Positions 8,992 through 49,365 of a DNA stretch of 64,000 nucleotides are shown here, piece by piece. The notes under the pieces were generated by a model. It did not search any database. It was not told the DNA's origin and saw only the letters and a list, made by a program, of their open reading frames with translations. Source of the DNA: a virus. Position 1 is the stretch's first letter. Each line of letters opens with the position of its first letter. The stretch lies in IMG/VR virus record IMGVR_UViG_3300043465_002420; one strand, given 5' to 3'. A program made the position numbers and the translations under genes.

Positions 8992-9717
8992 ATGAAAATA
9001 AATTTAAAATACATCATAAGTGGAACTGGTCGTTGTGGAACAGTTTATATGGCTAGATTTTTCACAGAAATTGGGATTAATTGCGGTCATGAAGCCATTT
9101 TTGATAACCATGGCCTAGACATAGCACTTAAAAGAATTAATGGTAATGCTTCAATTGAGACGAGTCATTGTTCTAGATTTGACCTACTGAGATCTAAGCC
9201 CATAGAAAATTGGTTTTCTGCAAATAACATAATGGCGGAATCAAGTTACTTGGCTGCTCCTTTTCTGAATCATTCATGTTTTTCTGATGCTAGATTAATT
9301 CATGTTGTTCGCAATCCTTTAAAAGTTTTAAGTTCTTTTTTTCTAGATGCTAAATTTTTTGATCCTAAATCTGAAGGTCAGAAGCCTTGGAATTCTTTCG
9401 TTTACAGGCATATGCCACATATTGAAATGGAAAAAACCATAATTGAAAAAACTTGTAGGTATATCATAGATTGGAACAGGATGATCGAAAAAAGTAAAAT
9501 TGAAAAAATAAAAATAAGAATTGAAGATTATCCATATGATTCACTTGCTAACTTCCTTAGATCTAATGCAAAAATAATAAAAAACAATAAAATAAATTCT
9601 TGGAAAAATCGTGAAAAAGAGTTAACTATTTTTGATATACCAAAAGGAAAAACAAGAGATGAATTTGTATTCTTTATGAAAGAAAACAAATACACTGTCG
9701 ATATGGTTACAATTTAA
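8992..9717 (+). CDS. Sulfotransferase-family protein
   Basis: ISGTGRCGT (5'-phosphosulfate loop) and IHVVRNPLKVLSS (3'-phosphate motif). Confidence 0.7.
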   Translation: MKINLKYIISGTGRCGTVYMARFFTEIGINCGHEAIFDNHGLDIALKRINGNASIETSHCSRFDLLRSKPIENWFSANNIMAESSYLAAPFLNHSCFSDARLIHVVRNPLKVLSSFFLDAKFFDPKSEGQKPWNSFVYRHMPHIEMEKTIIEKTCRYIIDWNRMIEKSKIEKIKIRIEDYPYDSLANFLRSNAKIIKNNKINSWKNREKELTIFDIPKGKTRDEFVFFMKENKYTVDMVTI

Positions 9718-27340: not shown

Positions 27341-27656
27341 AGTTCAGACCTTTCACTGTTACATATAAAAAATCAATATTAGGAAGTTTATCCTGCAACT
27401 CTACAGGAAGTTTTATAACATTAGATTCAGTAGCATACAATATGAAATTATCATTTTTGGAAATAAGCTTAATGAACATATCGTAATTAGGAATTTTTCC
27501 CGATGATATCACTAATGAAATACCATCATTGCACACTTCCTTTGAATGTTCAATAAATATTTTAAAAATTTCAGAATCAAGTTGGATATTCCACTCAGGA
27601 AATATCCAACTATCATTCTTTCTGATGATTGGAACCACAGCTAAACTATTACTCAT
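27333..27656 (-). CDS. Hypothetical protein
   Basis: 107 aa; coupled to neighbours. Confidence 0.55.
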   Translation of the reverse strand: MSNSLAVVPIIRKNDSWIFPEWNIQLDSEIFKIFIEHSKEVCNDGISLVISSGKIPNYDMFIKLISKNDNFILYATESNVIKLPVELQDKLPNIDFLYVTVKGLNYE

Positions 27657-28593
27657 TTAAACTCCAATGTTTTTTTATTACACTTACAGCCGTTTTAAAC
27701 GCATGTGTAATGGTCATTTTTGAGTAAGGTCTTTTGGTAGAAGGATTAACCAATGATCTTGCAAGTTCTGACTTCCATCCATGCTTACCATTAAGGGAAG
27801 CGATGATACATTTACGCTCTAAATCTGATAGTGGCAAATTATCGATTTCAGAAACATTAAATGTAACTTCCGATTCATTTTGCCTTGCAACCGGATCAAA
27901 CCTTAGACCATCAGAATCATACAAGCTCTCAACCACACACTTTGTGATATGACTATTTACATTTCTTCTTTGTTTGGAGTTAAGTTTTAAATCCTCAAAA
28001 ACATCTTCTCTCGTTTTATTTGGATTTTGAAGCATATTTTGTTCAACTATATTCTTAAGCACATAATGCCTAGAAGGAGAAACTATAAGACGATTCTTAT
28101 TGATATGGTGCGATCTATATCTTGAAGCAACCCTACGCAAAAATGAAGTTATTTCTTTAGTTTCATCCGTAAAGTAATAAAGAGCAAAGATGGACTTTAG
28201 AAACAATTCTTGCATGATATCTGCATCGCCATATGACCATTTGTACAGCAAAGGAATATGTCCTTCAATAACTGCAACTTCGATAGTCTTATTTCCTAAT
28301 TCTGAGAATATTACCTTTTTAGGAATTAAGATTGTTTTGCGATCATTTTCAAATTCTGCAATTAAATTTTCTGGAATTTTATCAGTGTTTGGCTTATCGC
28401 TTAGTACTGACCATCTGAAAGCTACTTTTTCCTTACGAGGATAAAAAGATGACCATTTTTTCATTAATTCTGAGCTTTTCTTTATCTTTTCTTTTATGAA
28501 AGACTTATTTTCCTCAGAAAGAATATTATATTTGTAACTCATTGCTGCTTCAACCAACCTTTCTTGTTGTGATTGTTTACCGACTACAAACAT
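27649..28593 (-). CDS. Highly divergent sigma-70-like factor
   Basis: Region 2-like VIEGHIPLLYKWS..DIMQEL..ALYYF..ITSFLRRVASRYRSHHINKNRLIVSP; region 3-like PNKTREDVFEDL; region 4-like LSDLERKCII...SELARSL. Confidence 0.55.
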   Translation of the reverse strand: MFVVGKQSQQERLVEAAMSYKYNILSEENKSFIKEKIKKSSELMKKWSSFYPRKEKVAFRWSVLSDKPNTDKIPENLIAEFENDRKTILIPKKVIFSELGNKTIEVAVIEGHIPLLYKWSYGDADIMQELFLKSIFALYYFTDETKEITSFLRRVASRYRSHHINKNRLIVSPSRHYVLKNIVEQNMLQNPNKTREDVFEDLKLNSKQRRNVNSHITKCVVESLYDSDGLRFDPVARQNESEVTFNVSEIDNLPLSDLERKCIIASLNGKHGWKSELARSLVNPSTKRPYSKMTITHAFKTAVSVIKKHWSLNE

Positions 28594-40134: not shown

Positions 40135-40162
40135 TCAACAATCCTCCGTGAAATAAAAAAAT

Positions 40163-40194: not shown

Positions 40195-40953
40195 TTAAGA
40201 TTTTAAAAATCTATGAGACCATCTTTTTTTTATAATTTCATGATTATGAGTAAAGCTAGACTCACAATCAATAGTTTTCATGACTTCTTTAATCGTTTTA
40301 TTTTCATGATGTGTTACCAATCCAAGATGTAAAGCGTAAATTCTTTCCTTGAATTCTGTCAGTCTTAAAGAAAAATCACTGTCTTCACAATAGGCAAACT
40401 GTAAATGTTCTTCGTCAAACAAACCATATTTTTCATAAATAAATCTAGGAATACAAAAGCACCAACCACAAATGTAATCAATATCGCTGCCAAAATTAAA
40501 AATTGTTCCTTTACCAGATTCGTTTATTTTTCCACCAAGATATCCAACTTGTGCATAGCCATATTGTTGAATTTGACCAATCATTGCCTTATCCCAGTTT
40601 GGCAACACTTCGGTATCAGAATTCAATAAAATTGCATATGGATTTTTAGAAATTTTCATCAATTCATTGTTTGGCTTGATGAAACCAATATTTTGATCAT
40701 GATGAGAACAAATTATGTCTTTTTGACTTTCTATCCAACTTTTTGTTTCTTGATCTGAATTATTATTCCAAATATAAATTTGATAATTTTTTGTATTTTT
40801 TCTAATTGATTCGACACATTTTTTAAGATAAAAAAGCTGATTGTGGACAATTATCAAAATGTCTTTGGAAACATATTGGTAATTTGACATGCAATCCAAC
40901 TCTGCTAGAATCTTTTGACTGTATCTTTCGATTCTAAATATGACATCATTCAT
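40195..40953 (-). CDS. Glycosyltransferase family 2
   Basis: IIVHNQ, WNNNSD, ILLNSDT, YCEDSDFSLR. Confidence 0.9.
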   Translation of the reverse strand: MNDVIFRIERYSQKILAELDCMSNYQYVSKDILIIVHNQLFYLKKCVESIRKNTKNYQIYIWNNNSDQETKSWIESQKDIICSHHDQNIGFIKPNNELMKISKNPYAILLNSDTEVLPNWDKAMIGQIQQYGYAQVGYLGGKINESGKGTIFNFGSDIDYICGWCFCIPRFIYEKYGLFDEEHLQFAYCEDSDFSLRLTEFKERIYALHLGLVTHHENKTIKEVMKTIDCESSFTHNHEIIKKRWSHRFLKS

Positions 40954-40967
40954 ACACCAATTATAAA

Positions 40968-40997
40968 AAAAAAGCGTAGAAAAATCTACGCTTTTTT
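40968..40997 (-). terminator. Intrinsic terminator
   Basis: aaaaaagcgtaga-aaaa-tctacgctttttt. Confidence 0.9.
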
Positions 40998-41812: not shown

Positions 41813-42026
41813 CATGAACTCCATAAACAAAGTCATTTTTGTAATTGATCTTAAAGCAATGACTAAATCTTTACGATCATTTGTCTACAATTTAACTTAC
41901 TGAAATGTTTTATCATCGTAAAGAGATTTAATAAAAATTATTTATACGATTAAAAAATAGTCATACAAGCTCTTTTATCAATAAGCTGTAAATCGTAATT
42001 AACATTCGTAATAAAAGGAATTAAAC

Positions 42027-42212
42027 ATGCTTGTACTTAGTAGAAAAAAAGATGAAAAGATTATACTAAAATGTCCTGATATGCCTGACATAAAGATAAC
42101 CATTGTTAGGATTGACAACAAAAATAGAGTACGCATTGGAATTGAAGCCGACAAAGACATAACTGTTCTACGATCTGAGTTAGATCGATCAATTATAGAT
42201 AGCAACGATTAG
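42027..42212 (+). CDS. csrA: Carbon storage regulator CsrA homolog 1
   Basis: MLVLSRKKDEKI...VRIGIEADKDITVLRSEL; AAGGA SD. Confidence 0.9.
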   Translation: MLVLSRKKDEKIILKCPDMPDIKITIVRIDNKNRVRIGIEADKDITVLRSELDRSIIDSND

Positions 42213-42489
42213 AAATTTTGATTTTTTGCAAATACTTTAAAAATTCTTCATGCGAATACGATTCCACGATAACTTTATCAGAAATCAAATCTGCTTCAGA
42301 TTCGGATAAGGATAGTTTGCTTTTTAATTTTTCGACAGTGTAGTTCTTTTTTCTGGCAATCCAAGCTGCCGATAACAGTCTTGATTGATTGCTAGAATCA
42401 AATAAATTAGAACAAGAAGTGCAAATGCAAATTCCATCCACTAGTGGATGGGATAGACTTTGACCGCAATTAGGACAGACATAAATCAT
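42193..42489 (-). CDS. Zinc-ribbon protein
   Basis: CPNCG...CTSC; CATAAATA 8 nt before the ATG. Confidence 0.65.
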   Translation of the reverse strand: MIYVCPNCGQSLSHPLVDGICICTSCSNLFDSSNQSRLLSAAWIARKKNYTVEKLKSKLSLSESEADLISDKVIVESYSHEEFLKYLQKIKISNRCYL

Positions 42490-42515
42490 CTCAATAATAT
42501 TTATGCTGGAAAAGA

Positions 42516-42544
42516 AAAAACCCCATCATAAAGATGGGGTTTTT
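42516..42544 (-). terminator. Intrinsic terminator after the ParB-like gene
   Basis: aaaaaccccatc-ataaa-gatggggttttt. Confidence 0.9.
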
Positions 42545-42560
42545 ACAAAATAAAGAATTT

Positions 42561-43799
42561 TTACTTCTTATCTTGCTTAGAAAAACACTTTTTCAAGACT
42601 TTGTAACAATTTTCTTCGCCATCATGTATAGCTTTGGCTATTCTAATGGCAACCATTACAACATCTTTCTTGGGAACTTGCTTAGGTATGCAGAACAAAG
42701 GGTCTTCTTCAAGACAATTTGCATCATTTTTATAAACCTTGGTAAGATATCGAATATAATTTTCTTCTATTATTTGCTGCTTTAAAGCCTTTGGTTTGGA
42801 TTCTTCAGCATCCTCACCATTTACCAGTTTTGAAGCGGCATCAATATCCTTTCCTTTGGTTGAGTTTTTATTTTCACGCTGACGAGAAACAGCATCTGAA
42901 ACCTTTAAATTGGCCACATCCAAATTAGCCTGTGCAATTTCGATCTCAATTTCATCGTTTTGATCTGCCAATTGAATTTCTACTTCGGCAATTTGCTTTT
43001 CCTTAGTAGCCCTATTCAATCTTCGAGCATCACGCATGGTTTTCTGTTCATTTCTACTTTCTGCAATTTCATTCGCAGTTTCACGAATTTGACTTCTTTC
43101 TTCAACATCGTCAATTTCTGCTAACTTTATCGCAGCAAGCCTATTTATTCTGCCTTCAAGCAAGTCGTTTAAAGTAGAAGGATCAAGCTTTTTTACGAGG
43201 TGATCAGTATCACGAAGCCAAAGCTTGTTTTTTTGAAGAATGCTCAAAATTTGATCATCTGTGGCCTTGAATTTACGCAATTCCATCAGCAAGGCAACAT
43301 CATGACCATCATTTAAATTCTTACGGCAAGCATTTTCCGAATATGAATATGCTAAAGCATCAAGATCGCTATCGGCATTATAAATCTGACATATTACATC
43401 TTTATAAACTTCGTCAGCAACCTTCCAAGCATATTCTTCTTTTCCATTATCGCCCTCAACAATACAAGATGGATCTCTAACCATTTCATGTTTTTGTATT
43501 AGTTGCGACAACGCACGATATCTCCTATCTCCACCAACCAATTGGATTGATTTGGTTTCATGGATATAGCGACAAATCAAAGGAACCATCATGGTTTTAT
43601 TTTTAATATCCTCTTTCAAAATCTTTGAAAGATCTGCATCAATAAGATCATTCTGGCCAGATTCGGTTATCAATCTAGGATTATAAAATTGATAATTACC
43701 TGCTGATTGATCGGCTTCGGGAACCTCAATCAGATTGAAAGGCACCAAAAACAAAGTTCCATGAAGATTTTTAACACTTTCGGGCAAATCAAAAGACAT
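42561..43799 (-). CDS. parB: ParB/Spo0J-family CTPase with coiled-coil C-terminus
   Basis: Start re-called at MSFDLP (AAGGAG SD); YNPR, VPLI, VGGDRRYRAL (arginine patch), SENACRKNL, HTH-like segment. Confidence 0.75.
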   Translation of the reverse strand: MSFDLPESVKNLHGTLFLVPFNLIEVPEADQSAGNYQFYNPRLITESGQNDLIDADLSKILKEDIKNKTMMVPLICRYIHETKSIQLVGGDRRYRALSQLIQKHEMVRDPSCIVEGDNGKEEYAWKVADEVYKDVICQIYNADSDLDALAYSYSENACRKNLNDGHDVALLMELRKFKATDDQILSILQKNKLWLRDTDHLVKKLDPSTLNDLLEGRINRLAAIKLAEIDDVEERSQIRETANEIAESRNEQKTMRDARRLNRATKEKQIAEVEIQLADQNDEIEIEIAQANLDVANLKVSDAVSRQRENKNSTKGKDIDAASKLVNGEDAEESKPKALKQQIIEENYIRYLTKVYKNDANCLEEDPLFCIPKQVPKKDVVMVAIRIAKAIHDGEENCYKVLKKCFSKQDKK

Positions 43800-44058
43800 A
43801 GACAAACTCCTTAATGAGATGATGACTTCCATTCCAAGGCGAAAAATATCAGAAATTAAAATCCCTGTCAACAGGTTTACGACAACAATTTAAATAATTT
43901 TTTCGTAAACCATATGACCCAAATTATCCAAATTAACCAAACTTCATATTTTTAAAAAATGAAATAGAATTATGATTAATTTAGACTTAAATTAGAATAA
44001 TTAACTTCATAGGTTCAATTTACCTCGTTATCAACGAAAGTAAAATTGATGATTAAAT

Positions 44059-44250
44059 TTACATTTTGTTGGCGTTAAATTTTTCGGAAAAGTCATTGGT
44101 TGGATTAAATTCTTTTGATTCTTTTGATTCTTTTGCTCTAAAAACAAAATCATTACAATGATTGCAAATAACATTGAAATCATTATCAATCGAATAATCA
44201 CGATCTTTCAAAAACTTTTTACAATTTGGACAGCTTCTTGCCTTTGACAT
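44059..44250 (-). CDS. Small zinc-finger protein
   Basis: CPNC...CNHC; AGGTG SD; overlaps the end of csrA2. Confidence 0.6.
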   Translation of the reverse strand: MSKARSCPNCKKFLKDRDYSIDNDFNVICNHCNDFVFRAKESKESKEFNPTNDFSEKFNANKM

Positions 44251-44419
44251 CTATTTCACCTAATTTTATAGCATCATAAACTTCTTGCCTATGGACAGGT
44301 ATTTCACTTGGGGCTTCTATACCTATTCTAACTTTGCCCCTACCAACCTCCACAACAGTAATAATAATATTATTGTTTATCACAAGACTCTCATTGATTT
44401 TTCTCGATAATATCAGCAT
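44219..44419 (-). CDS. csrA: Carbon storage regulator CsrA homolog 2
   Basis: MLILSRKINESLVI...KVRIGIEAPSEIPVHRQEVY. Confidence 0.95.
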   Translation of the reverse strand: MLILSRKINESLVINNNIIITVVEVGRGKVRIGIEAPSEIPVHRQEVYDAIKLGEIDVKGKKLSKL

Positions 44420-44457
44420 TTCATATCTTCCTTGAAAAAATAAATTGATCTTTAATT

Positions 44458-44505: not shown

Positions 44506-44531
44506 AAGGCAGCAGGATTACCTGCTGCCTT
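44506..44531 (-). terminator. Intrinsic terminator
   Basis: aaggcagcagg-atta-cctgctgcctt with a U tract on the minus strand. Confidence 0.92.
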
Positions 44532-44550
44532 ATCAAAATATATATTTTGA

Positions 44551-44712
44551 TTATGCGAACAAAGATTGGCCACAAACTGTAACTGCTGCTACATAAGCAC
44601 CAGCACGACCATTGCATGTACCAGAAGCAATGTTTGCTCTGCTACACTGGGGGTAAAAAAATCTCCAAGTAACATTAGTATATGTCGAATCACTCTTTTT
44701 GCAACGAAACAT
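44551..44712 (-). CDS. Unlisted 53-aa Cys-containing small protein
   Basis: GGAGG SD 4 nt before ATG; MFRCKKSDSTYTNVTWRFFYPQCSRANIASGTCNGRAGAYVAAVTVCGQSLFA; terminator directly after the stop. Confidence 0.7.
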   Translation of the reverse strand: MFRCKKSDSTYTNVTWRFFYPQCSRANIASGTCNGRAGAYVAAVTVCGQSLFA

Positions 44713-47024: not shown

Positions 47025-47642
47025 CTATTTTTCATCGTTATCATTATCTAATTCGATCATCCAATAAGCCACACCTAAAAAACTTTCCCAATCTTTTATT
47101 TTATAATCACATCTCAAAGCATTCATTTTAGGCTTCTTAGGTACTTTTAAAAGTTTCATATTGGCTTGTAACGGATTTCTATTCGCTTTTTTGGTGTTAC
47201 ACTTTACACAAGCTAAAACGCAATTTTCCCAAGTGGTCAAACCGCCATGACTTCTAGGAATAACATGATCTATAGATAATTCTTCTGTGCTAGGCTTCTG
47301 ACCACAATATTGGCACTTGTATTCGTCTCTTTTGTAAATTGTCTTTCTACAATAATGAACTTTTTTTGCTGGAACTTTATCGTATCTTGTAAGCTGAATA
47401 ACTGATGGTATTCTGAATGATGCATTTACACTTCTAAGCTTTTCTTCATCGTCTTGTGGTCTTACTTTAGACCAATCTTCCCAAGTAAGAGTTTGAAATC
47501 CGTTGGCACAATCTACAATTATAGCTTTTGGCTCACCATCTTTATGTTCACTGAATAATTTTATTAGAGCTTTTTCAAGCGTTAGAATAGTAATTGGTCG
47601 CCACGACTTGTTTAAAACTAAAACTTTTCTATTTTGTATCAT
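47025..47642 (-). CDS. HNH endonuclease (McrA-like, bacterial type)
   Basis: VLVLNKSWRPI; RDEYKCQYCG; IDHVIPRSHGGLTTWENCVLACVKCNTKK. Confidence 0.92.
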   Translation of the reverse strand: MIQNRKVLVLNKSWRPITILTLEKALIKLFSEHKDGEPKAIIVDCANGFQTLTWEDWSKVRPQDDEEKLRSVNASFRIPSVIQLTRYDKVPAKKVHYCRKTIYKRDEYKCQYCGQKPSTEELSIDHVIPRSHGGLTTWENCVLACVKCNTKKANRNPLQANMKLLKVPKKPKMNALRCDYKIKDWESFLGVAYWMIELDNDNDEK

Positions 47643-48981: not shown

Positions 48982-49338
48982 TTATTTTTTAATATGAGTT
49001 ATTGAAAAAGGATAGTTATCCTTTGCTGTATAAAACTTCTTAATTGGCTCTGGTCCTGATATATGTCTTATATCAAATGGGGCTTTAGTGCCATTATTGC
49101 CATCGCCATAATTCTTTGGCTCTCCTGGTATGTGCTTAATACTAAATGGAGGGCCATCACCGTTATCGTAAAGCCTATTGTCCAAACTAATATACAAAAG
49201 AGCATCAGCAGAACTAGGCAAATATGTTTGCAATGGGTAAAGTCCAATGCCTCCATACCCTAGAGGGTACAAACCAGTTTTTCCAGATGTTTTACCTTCA
49301 TTGATTTTAAACCAGTTTTTAAACGAAAAATCTTTCAT
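48982..49338 (-). CDS. Gly/Pro-rich protein with capsid-targeting-like N-terminus and PFxIxHI repeats
   Basis: MKDFSFKNWFKINE; CATAAATA 4 nt before the ATG. Confidence 0.7.
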   Translation of the reverse strand: MKDFSFKNWFKINEGKTSGKTGLYPLGYGGIGLYPLQTYLPSSADALLYISLDNRLYDNGDGPPFSIKHIPGEPKNYGDGNNGTKAPFDIRHISGPEPIKKFYTAKDNYPFSITHIKK

Positions 49339-49365
49339 ATATTATTTATGCATGAAACAAAAAAA

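Follow-up and report, generated by a model that had tools for sequence, protein, structure and literature searches.

CsrA is a main post-transcriptional regulator of bacteria, and its presence in phages has been catalogued but never explained. Vibrio phages carry genes annotated 'CsrA-like regulator', and in Legionella, CsrA paralogues borne on integrative and conjugative elements (ICEs), known as CsrT, are thought to rewire host post-transcriptional control. Alleles of csrA have been found in 30 of 2517 phage genomes, with no function given, an example being rsmM of Pseudomonas aeruginosa phages (Sobrero and Valverde 2020, PMC7366521). The nearest experimentally supported CsrA of a mobile element is RsmQ, from the plasmid pQBR103 (PMC9928087).

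Here we describe two csrA genes, csrA1 and csrA2, in a 64,000-nucleotide stretch of viral DNA (the window) from IMG/VR record IMGVR_UViG_3300043465_002420. It corresponds, in reverse complement, to bases 15543-79542 of a 92,977-bp contig from an uncultured lake phage, and the CheckV completeness of the contig, 19%, implies a genome near 0.5 Mb. Like the catalogued phage alleles, CsrA2 is a host-like, phage-borne copy. The catalogued alleles, however, are single copies in small or medium-sized phages, whereas here we find a convergent pair in phages of 0.4-0.6 Mb, one member of which comes from a separate clade of viral-contig sequences. RsmQ and CsrT likewise represent mobile elements with a CsrA homologue of their own, but they belong to plasmids and ICEs and have experimental support, whereas the phage described here is huge, of lytic type, and known from sequence alone. 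We consider it probable that the locus encodes two functional RNA-binding regulators of the CsrA family acting on GGA-bearing RNAs, with CsrA2 as a host mimic and CsrA1 as a phage-specialised form.

CsrA1 and CsrA2 belong to the CsrA family

Family membership was scored against Pfam PF02599, a domain of ~53 residues with a cut-off of 27 bits. CsrA1 reached 59.3 bits (E = 3.5e-16, positions 1-51 of 53) and CsrA2 81.7 bits (E = 3.7e-23, positions 1-52 of 53), and these were the only two CsrA matches in the whole contig. The original prediction had described two distinct CsrA paralogs, one near-canonical and the other with a loop insertion and an altered C terminus; this was confirmed, and both open reading frames (ORFs) end exactly where they had been placed. 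The two proteins are 41% identical. CsrA2 aligns without gaps to RsmE (2JPP) and Escherichia coli CsrA (1Y00) over residues 1-52/54. In the alignment to 2JPP, CsrA1 has four additional residues after the position of RsmE G15, in the β2-β3 hairpin, and one more in the next loop (β3-β4); L replaces H43, and the C terminus is short and different. It keeps the equivalents of L2, L4, R6, K7, V42, R44, and E46. The residues most critical for RNA binding by CsrA are L4 in β1 and R44 in β5 (PMC7652899), and their equivalents are present in both phage proteins and invariant across 66 aligned CsrA1- and CsrA2-type relatives.

An AlphaFold2 monomer model of CsrA1, built with 66 homologues, had a mean predicted local distance difference test (pLDDT) score of 82; in it, the β2-β3 hairpin (strands 11-16 and 19-29) is lengthened and has the insertion at its tip. 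When this model was compared with the PDB using Foldseek, ranks 1-11 were all CsrA, RsmE, or RsmA structures (probability 0.91-1.0, template modeling [TM] score 0.46-0.63). As modeled, CsrA1 has the CsrA fold. The phage proteins thus share with the bacterial CsrA/RsmA/RsmE proteins (1Y00; P. fluorescens RsmE-hcnA, 2JPP) the Pfam family, the predicted fold, L4 and R44, and the β1 and β5 motifs. They differ in being encoded by a huge phage and, for CsrA1, in the longer hairpin, the extra β3-β4 residue, the H43L replacement, and the short tail. Judged by these features, the host-like CsrA2 and the phage-clade CsrA1 are both CsrA family members, probably of the GGA-binding type. CsrA2, which keeps the whole RNA-binding surface, would most likely be a mimic of the host regulator. 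CsrA1 most likely binds GGA RNA as well and would be specialised on targets chosen by the phage.

The hydrophobic core pattern is common to CsrA1 and CsrA2, which would also suit a different role for CsrA1, namely that of an anti-CsrA. Through the interleaved β-core it could form mixed dimers with host CsrA or with CsrA2, alter or poison one RNA-binding face, and so act as a dominant modifier. In a CsrA dimer, both chains contribute to two composite RNA-binding faces, and mixed dimers engineered in vitro have proved viable (PMC7652899); in the CsrA1 clade, H43L and the extended hairpin are, in addition, fixed. However, all residues critical for RNA binding are kept in CsrA1 and are under strong selection, which a mere poison would not need, and complete relatives carry CsrA1 alone. 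We regard a poisoning role as unlikely and favor RNA binding by CsrA1 in its own right.

CsrA1 is a conserved viral lineage and CsrA2 resembles proteins of Planctomycetota

In a maximum-likelihood tree, the CsrA1 type formed a separate clade of viral-contig sequences only, with a support of 100 in the Shimodaira-Hasegawa-like approximate likelihood ratio test (SH-aLRT); CsrA2 fell among the canonical proteins, where its nearest cellular neighbours were from Planctomycetota. A tblastn search of 50,697 deposited phage records with CsrA1 returned one close match, LR756511 (595 kb, uncultured), at 74% identity, and a second, weak one in a short record (42%, E = 8e-4). With CsrA2, the same records yielded only distant csrA genes (<50% identity) from phages of Vibrio, Bacillus, and Acinetobacter, and a megablast of the locus against deposited phages gave zero matches. 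CsrA1 was present at 54 loci in IMG/VR, on contigs of up to 533 kb, and the CsrA1 type made up 452 clusters at E ≤1e-5 in a collection of 5.8 billion proteins, on contigs of up to 670 kb. The exact CsrA1 protein occurs on 32 contigs and the exact CsrA2 protein on 30, the longest listed for each being 260,695 bp. CsrA is unmentioned in the huge-phage survey that deposited LR756511-type genomes (PMC7162821), and the term was absent from the jumbo-phage papers that a text search listed.

Twenty-nine related contigs were collected via CsrA1, and others, mostly fragments, via the terminase. Among the 29, 13 hold at least two CsrA genes, and 11 have a convergent csrA pair on opposite strands, 2-8.5 kb apart. 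All five near-complete genomes examined contain CsrA1, including one that was found via the terminase and not via CsrA. The CsrA1 type stands alone in three near-complete relatives (533 kb, 373 kb, and LR756511), a 527-kb relative genome has three CsrA copies, and the 572-kb complete genome, which has terminal repeats and is the sole complete one reached via the terminase, has one CsrA. Over 52 codons, the comparison of CsrA1 with two relatives (L005/L006) gave 28 synonymous-codon and 5 amino-acid differences, indicating strong purifying selection; the same comparison for CsrA2 gave 18 of each.

CsrA2 is absent from several relatives and diverges fast, as might be expected if the csrA genes were passengers or decaying copies without a role in infection. 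Against this, both genes are intact, and the excess of synonymous differences in CsrA1 and its occurrence in every near-complete genome examined make such a status highly improbable. Both genes are part of a conserved module in a clade of 0.4-0.6-Mb freshwater phages, in which CsrA1 would represent the older, phage-restricted lineage under tighter selection. What the data describe is a distinct CsrA lineage, found here only in phages and under strong purifying selection, that lies within a fixed module of phages of this size, often beside a host-like copy.

To the tree placement of CsrA2 we can add the result of a pattern-seeded search through 185,579 species genomes. Almost all of its top matches, 57-73% identical, were metagenome-assembled genomes of Planctomycetia, Pirellulales, Planctomycetaceae, or Mariniblastus, followed by Verrucomicrobiota and Treponema; Planctomycetota account for 61 of the 80 CsrA2 matches used in the tree. 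This supports, but does not prove, a host or donor among the Planctomycetota, and gives a host lead for a huge-phage clade that has no cultured member.

We note that many CsrA1 orthologues (L011, L014, L015, L017, L020, L027, L007, L008, and L050) carry a C-terminal extension, R-(A/S)-P-x-G-Q-I-S-A-x-T, that is missing from the window CsrA1 and its two closest relatives. By analogy with Bacillus CsrA, in which a C-terminal extension serves FliW binding, it could be a partner-binding tail.

Leaders of the csrA genes and candidate targets

Sigma-70-like elements lie upstream of both csrA genes, and each gene has a Shine-Dalgarno (SD) leader. Their promoters are probably of host type; a sigma-70 promoter scan around the locus did not rise above shuffles. 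CsrA2 would then be made early, bind the same GGA sites as the host regulator, and shift the Csr regulon of the host and possibly that of the phage. The SDs quoted in the original prediction were all found (clpX CACGGAGGA, parB AAGGAG, csrA1 AAGGA, and csrA2 CAAGGAAG). As in the autoregulation of E. coli csrA, a GGA overlaps the SD in the leader of each phage csrA gene. The CAAGGAAG at the csrA2 SD is a candidate autoregulatory site, and the ribosome-binding site (RBS) of the clpX-like gene (Table 1) is a candidate CsrA target, the sequence of which is not conserved among relatives.

Among the relatives, a second (C)A(A/T)GGA precedes the SD GGA by 3-30 nt in 16 of 23 csrA1 leaders. For the other SD-led ORFs at these loci, used as controls, a second GGA was seen in 70 of 243 (Fisher P = 2e-4, a value that is indicative only, as the sequences are related and their independence is overstated). 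A CsrA dimer can bridge GGA sites 10-63 nt apart (PMC7652899). The spacing in the csrA1 leaders would lie within this bridging range, and the arrangement recalls csrA autoregulation in E. coli. In most relatives, the targets of CsrA1 would be expected to include its own leader, in which the second GGA and the SD are a bridging distance apart. The two proteins and their leaders are now available as concrete material for testing viral control of translation.

Beyond the relatedness of the leaders compared above, several observations weigh against two CsrAs acting as host mimic and phage-specialised regulator. In the window, the csrA1 and csrA2 leaders have one GGA each, so that autoregulation would be weaker here than in the relatives. 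Hairpins with GGA in the loop (stems of at least 4) showed no excess at RBSs, with 33% compared to 27% in coding sequence. No sponge RNA was found, as judged by the lack of any Rfam match in the window and of any intergenic stretch with at least 4 GGA in 93 kb, and the locus differs from bacterial Csr/Rsm systems in that neither a CsrB/RsmZ-type sponge RNA nor a FliW-type partner was found in the fragment. CsrA2 evolves fast, with 65% identity between close relatives and H43 changed to F or Y. Finally, the host assignment comes from one small protein and a pattern-seeded search, and the GC (guanine plus cytosine) content of the contig, 30%, is low for Planctomycetota.

Given the lack of an Rfam match and of GGA-rich intergenic RNA, neither a target set nor an antagonist was identified in the ~19% of the genome available. 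One apparent GGA-rich intergenic region proved to be the coding end of a cut gene.

The terminase leaders of three relatives (L163, L164, and L207) hold CAAGGAAG and GAGGAC together with the SD AAAGGAA within 40 nt, and they may possibly represent a cluster of CsrA sites on a late gene. Such leaders are what one would look for if the two CsrAs controlled the virion and late mRNAs of the phage itself through GGA sites at the RBS. The contig provides little else in that direction: besides the lack of GGA-loop hairpin enrichment at RBSs, the CsrA-site core pattern CANGGANG was not significantly enriched in the window (20 compared to 12.8 expected, with 5 of 100 shuffles reaching 20), and the fragment has no recognisable structural gene. 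For 20 large ORFs, PHROG annotation returned helicase, amidoligase, ATPase, and glycosyltransferase matches and no structural gene, and because of this 'late' status cannot be checked inside the contig. We think it improbable that the phage's own late mRNAs are the regulon of the two CsrAs and retain the view of CsrA2 as host mimic beside a phage-specialised CsrA1.

Start codons abutted by a late-promoter-like box

T4 late promoters, TATAAATA, are read by gp55 with gp33 and gp45. The window contains genes whose ATG closely follows a box of this kind. TAAATA-N4-ATG occurs four times in the window compared to 3.2 expected, three of the four on called gene starts; since this count is at chance, the argument rests on position and conservation. 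Seven such sites are found in the whole contig, five of them at called gene starts, along with two starts with N5 spacing and two with CATAAATA at N7 or N8, and ~8 of the 134 contig genes are box-abutted. The box before the gene for Zn98, a zinc-ribbon protein convergent with csrA1 (Table 1), recurs as GCATAAATA-N5-ATG in 7 of 17 relatives, and 5 more have N7, N8, or N10 spacing or variant boxes. It is kept across relatives with GC contents of 30-53%, and the five spacer bases vary freely. The terminase of a 527-kb relative (G018) begins with CATAAATA-N5-ATG.

The GCATAAATA/TAAATA box is similar to the -10 element of T4 late promoters, follows terminators, and precedes the terminase in one relative. 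It differs from the T4 arrangement in that only 4-8 nt, without an SD, separate it from the ATG, so that transcripts would be expected to begin at the AUG or beside it. The sequence fits a T4-late-like promoter placed for that outcome, and the box-abutted genes (Zn98 and several tagged proteins) would represent a design separate from the csrA genes. A gp55-like factor was not found in the contig; a sigma-like ORF (Table 1) has no Pfam sigma match. The cultured pelagiphage HTVC008M has five TATAAATA-N5-ATG sites, compared to 0 for a reversed-word control, and the two that were checked are annotated coding sequence starts; the same phage gave no CsrA match even at E 0.1. Promoter-abutted start codons are a separate, widespread phage design, independent of csrA, and the question of what the phage CsrAs do is now separated from it.

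The original prediction had joined the two features in a takeover switch, in which early phage CsrA would act as a general block on SD-led mRNAs, both those of the host and the early ones of the phage, while GGA-free late mRNAs beginning at the AUG would escape and late genes would take over. Its components stand: there are two CsrAs with GGA-binding residues, both genes have sigma-70-like elements and SD leaders, and starts that abut a box and lack an SD form a real, conserved class, to which the G018 terminase belongs. The link between them is not supported. With an SD core of at least 4 nt and crude start calls, 77 of 134 starts were SD-led, compared to 11% of internal ATGs; at least 57% of contig genes are thus SD-led, some 'no SD' calls being start errors, as for parB (Table 1). 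SD-led initiation is the rule, so a general SD block would strike most of the phage's own genes, only ~8 of which are box-abutted. Moreover, CsrA acts at specific, often paired GGA sites and not at every SD (PMC7652899). In 15 of 24 distinct relatives the leader of terminase, a canonical late gene, is SD-like, several of the 15 having two or three GGA motifs, and in 1 it is box-abutted; this speaks against an escape of leaderless late mRNAs. A tie between csrA and leaderless genes is not supported either, as the Zn98 box persists in relatives without csrA2 and HTVC008M has the design without csrA. The two features coexist, and nothing ties the CsrAs to the leaderless genes. We give the switch little credence and continue to read the csrA genes as host mimic and phage-specialised regulator, apart from the box-abutted starts.

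Some genes begin 6 nt after a host-type TATAAT and have no SD, such as a GT2 gene right after a terminator and a second gene near the left end of the window (Table 1). Such genes suggest that leaderless starts include a second class, of sigma-70 type. Beyond the window start, a gene truncated at the end of the contig begins MITFIEWLLENTEP behind TAAATA-GGA-N10-ATG; here the box comes with a short SD-bearing leader and does not abut the ATG.

Organization and neighbours of the csrA locus

Coordinates of the features in and around the locus are collected in Table 1.

Table 1. Features discussed in the text, with positions in the window (position 1 is its first base)
Feature	Position	Strand	Remarks
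csrA1	42027-42212	+	61 aa; divergent CsrA
csrA1 SD, AAGGA	42015-42019	+	7 nt before ATG; sole GGA in the 190-nt upstream spacer
csrA2	44219-44419	-	66 aa; canonical CsrA
CAAGGAAG over the csrA2 SD	44427-44434	-	matches the CsrA-site core CANGGANG
RBS of clpX-like gene, CACGGAGG(A)	40143-40150	-	leader CACGGAGGA; two overlapping GGA motifs
Zn98	42193-42489	-	98-aa zinc-ribbon protein; leaderless-type gene; convergent with csrA1
GCATAAATA box	42498-42506	-	immediately follows the ParB terminator; 8 nt upstream of the Zn98 ATG, no purine-rich SD between
Intrinsic terminator after ParB-like gene	42516-42544	-	hairpin at the same place in relatives
ParB-like gene	42561-43799	-	N-terminal ParB domain; between the two csrA genes, conserved there; true start ATG 43799
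SD of ParB-like gene, AAGGAG	43807-43812	-	7 nt before ATG
Zn63	44059-44250	-	63-aa zinc-ribbon protein; start overlaps csrA2 end by 32 nt
53-aa four-Cys protein	44506-44712	-	GGAGGA SD; strong terminator 44506-44531; no Pfam family
TAAATA-N4-ATG after T-rich terminator tail	49336-49348	-	gene 48982-49338, N-terminal tag MKDFSFKNWF
Other box-abutted ATGs	11483, 23300	-
Other box-abutted ATG	28739	+	N5
Other box-abutted ATG	5395	-	N7
GT2 gene after TATAAT	40195-40953	-	box region 40954-40990
Second TATAAT-abutted gene	8992-9717	+	box region 8970-8991
Gene cut by contig end	-13434 to -12892	-	543 nt; beyond the window start
Sigma-like ORF	27649-28593		
HNH endonuclease	47025-47642	-	Pfam E 3e-16; between methyltransferase-like gene and next operon

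The gene order of the locus is kept in more than 20 contigs with local GC contents from ~30% to 53%. It runs from ClpX and GT2 through two small proteins to csrA1 on the opposite strand, Zn98, and the ParB-like gene, and then through a variable stretch to Zn63-csrA2, the 53-aa Cys-rich protein, and a second GT2. The ParB-like gene matches Pfam ParB_N at E 8e-5, which is below the cut-off. Zn98, conserved in 17 relatives, overlaps the 3′ end of csrA1 by 20 nt in the window and in the two closest relatives, and elsewhere a terminator lies between the two genes; it has no Pfam family, and an ESM Atlas lookup scored <0.9. Zn63 is gained and lost along with csrA2: across five relatives it accompanies csrA2 wherever the latter was detected, and it is missing where csrA2 is missing.

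By position, Zn63 and Zn98 are candidate partners of the CsrAs. An origin of the two as paralogous CsrA partners was considered and rejected, as they share generic zinc-ribbon likeness only (BLASTP E 0.018; hhalign probability 41%). At its most far-reaching, the locus could be pictured as a virus-run Csr circuit that times translation during infection, consisting of the phage-only CsrA1, near-universal in this clade of the largest known phages, and a captured host-type CsrA2. Possibly, the adjacent zinc-ribbon proteins, expressed late, would serve as antagonists, mixed dimers would retune specificity, and leaderless late messages would lie outside its reach. We consider this complete circuit a long shot.

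In farther relatives (L010, L011, L014, L046, and L053), a ~215-aa protein comes after csrA2, whether or not Zn63 is present; it follows the csrA2-Zn63 pair or replaces Zn63. This protein, missing from the window, has a HEM(I/V)H zincin motif (HEMxH) and a C-terminal CxC...CxxC ribbon, with an SprT-like look. The 53-aa four-Cys protein is kept in all relatives, including those that lack csrA2, and a TATAAT-like box lies upstream of it in relatives.

The window has a GC content of ~30% throughout, with no tRNAs. Base composition varies strongly at constant gene order among the relatives, from 30% in the window through 45-50% in G001 to as much as 56% at terminase loci, and the relatives G001/L005 keep an 87-90% identical CsrA1 despite their different GC content. 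The same gene order and this level of CsrA1 identity at very different GC contents point to large compositional shifts within the clade. The HNH endonuclease gene listed in Table 1 may be a mobile insertion.

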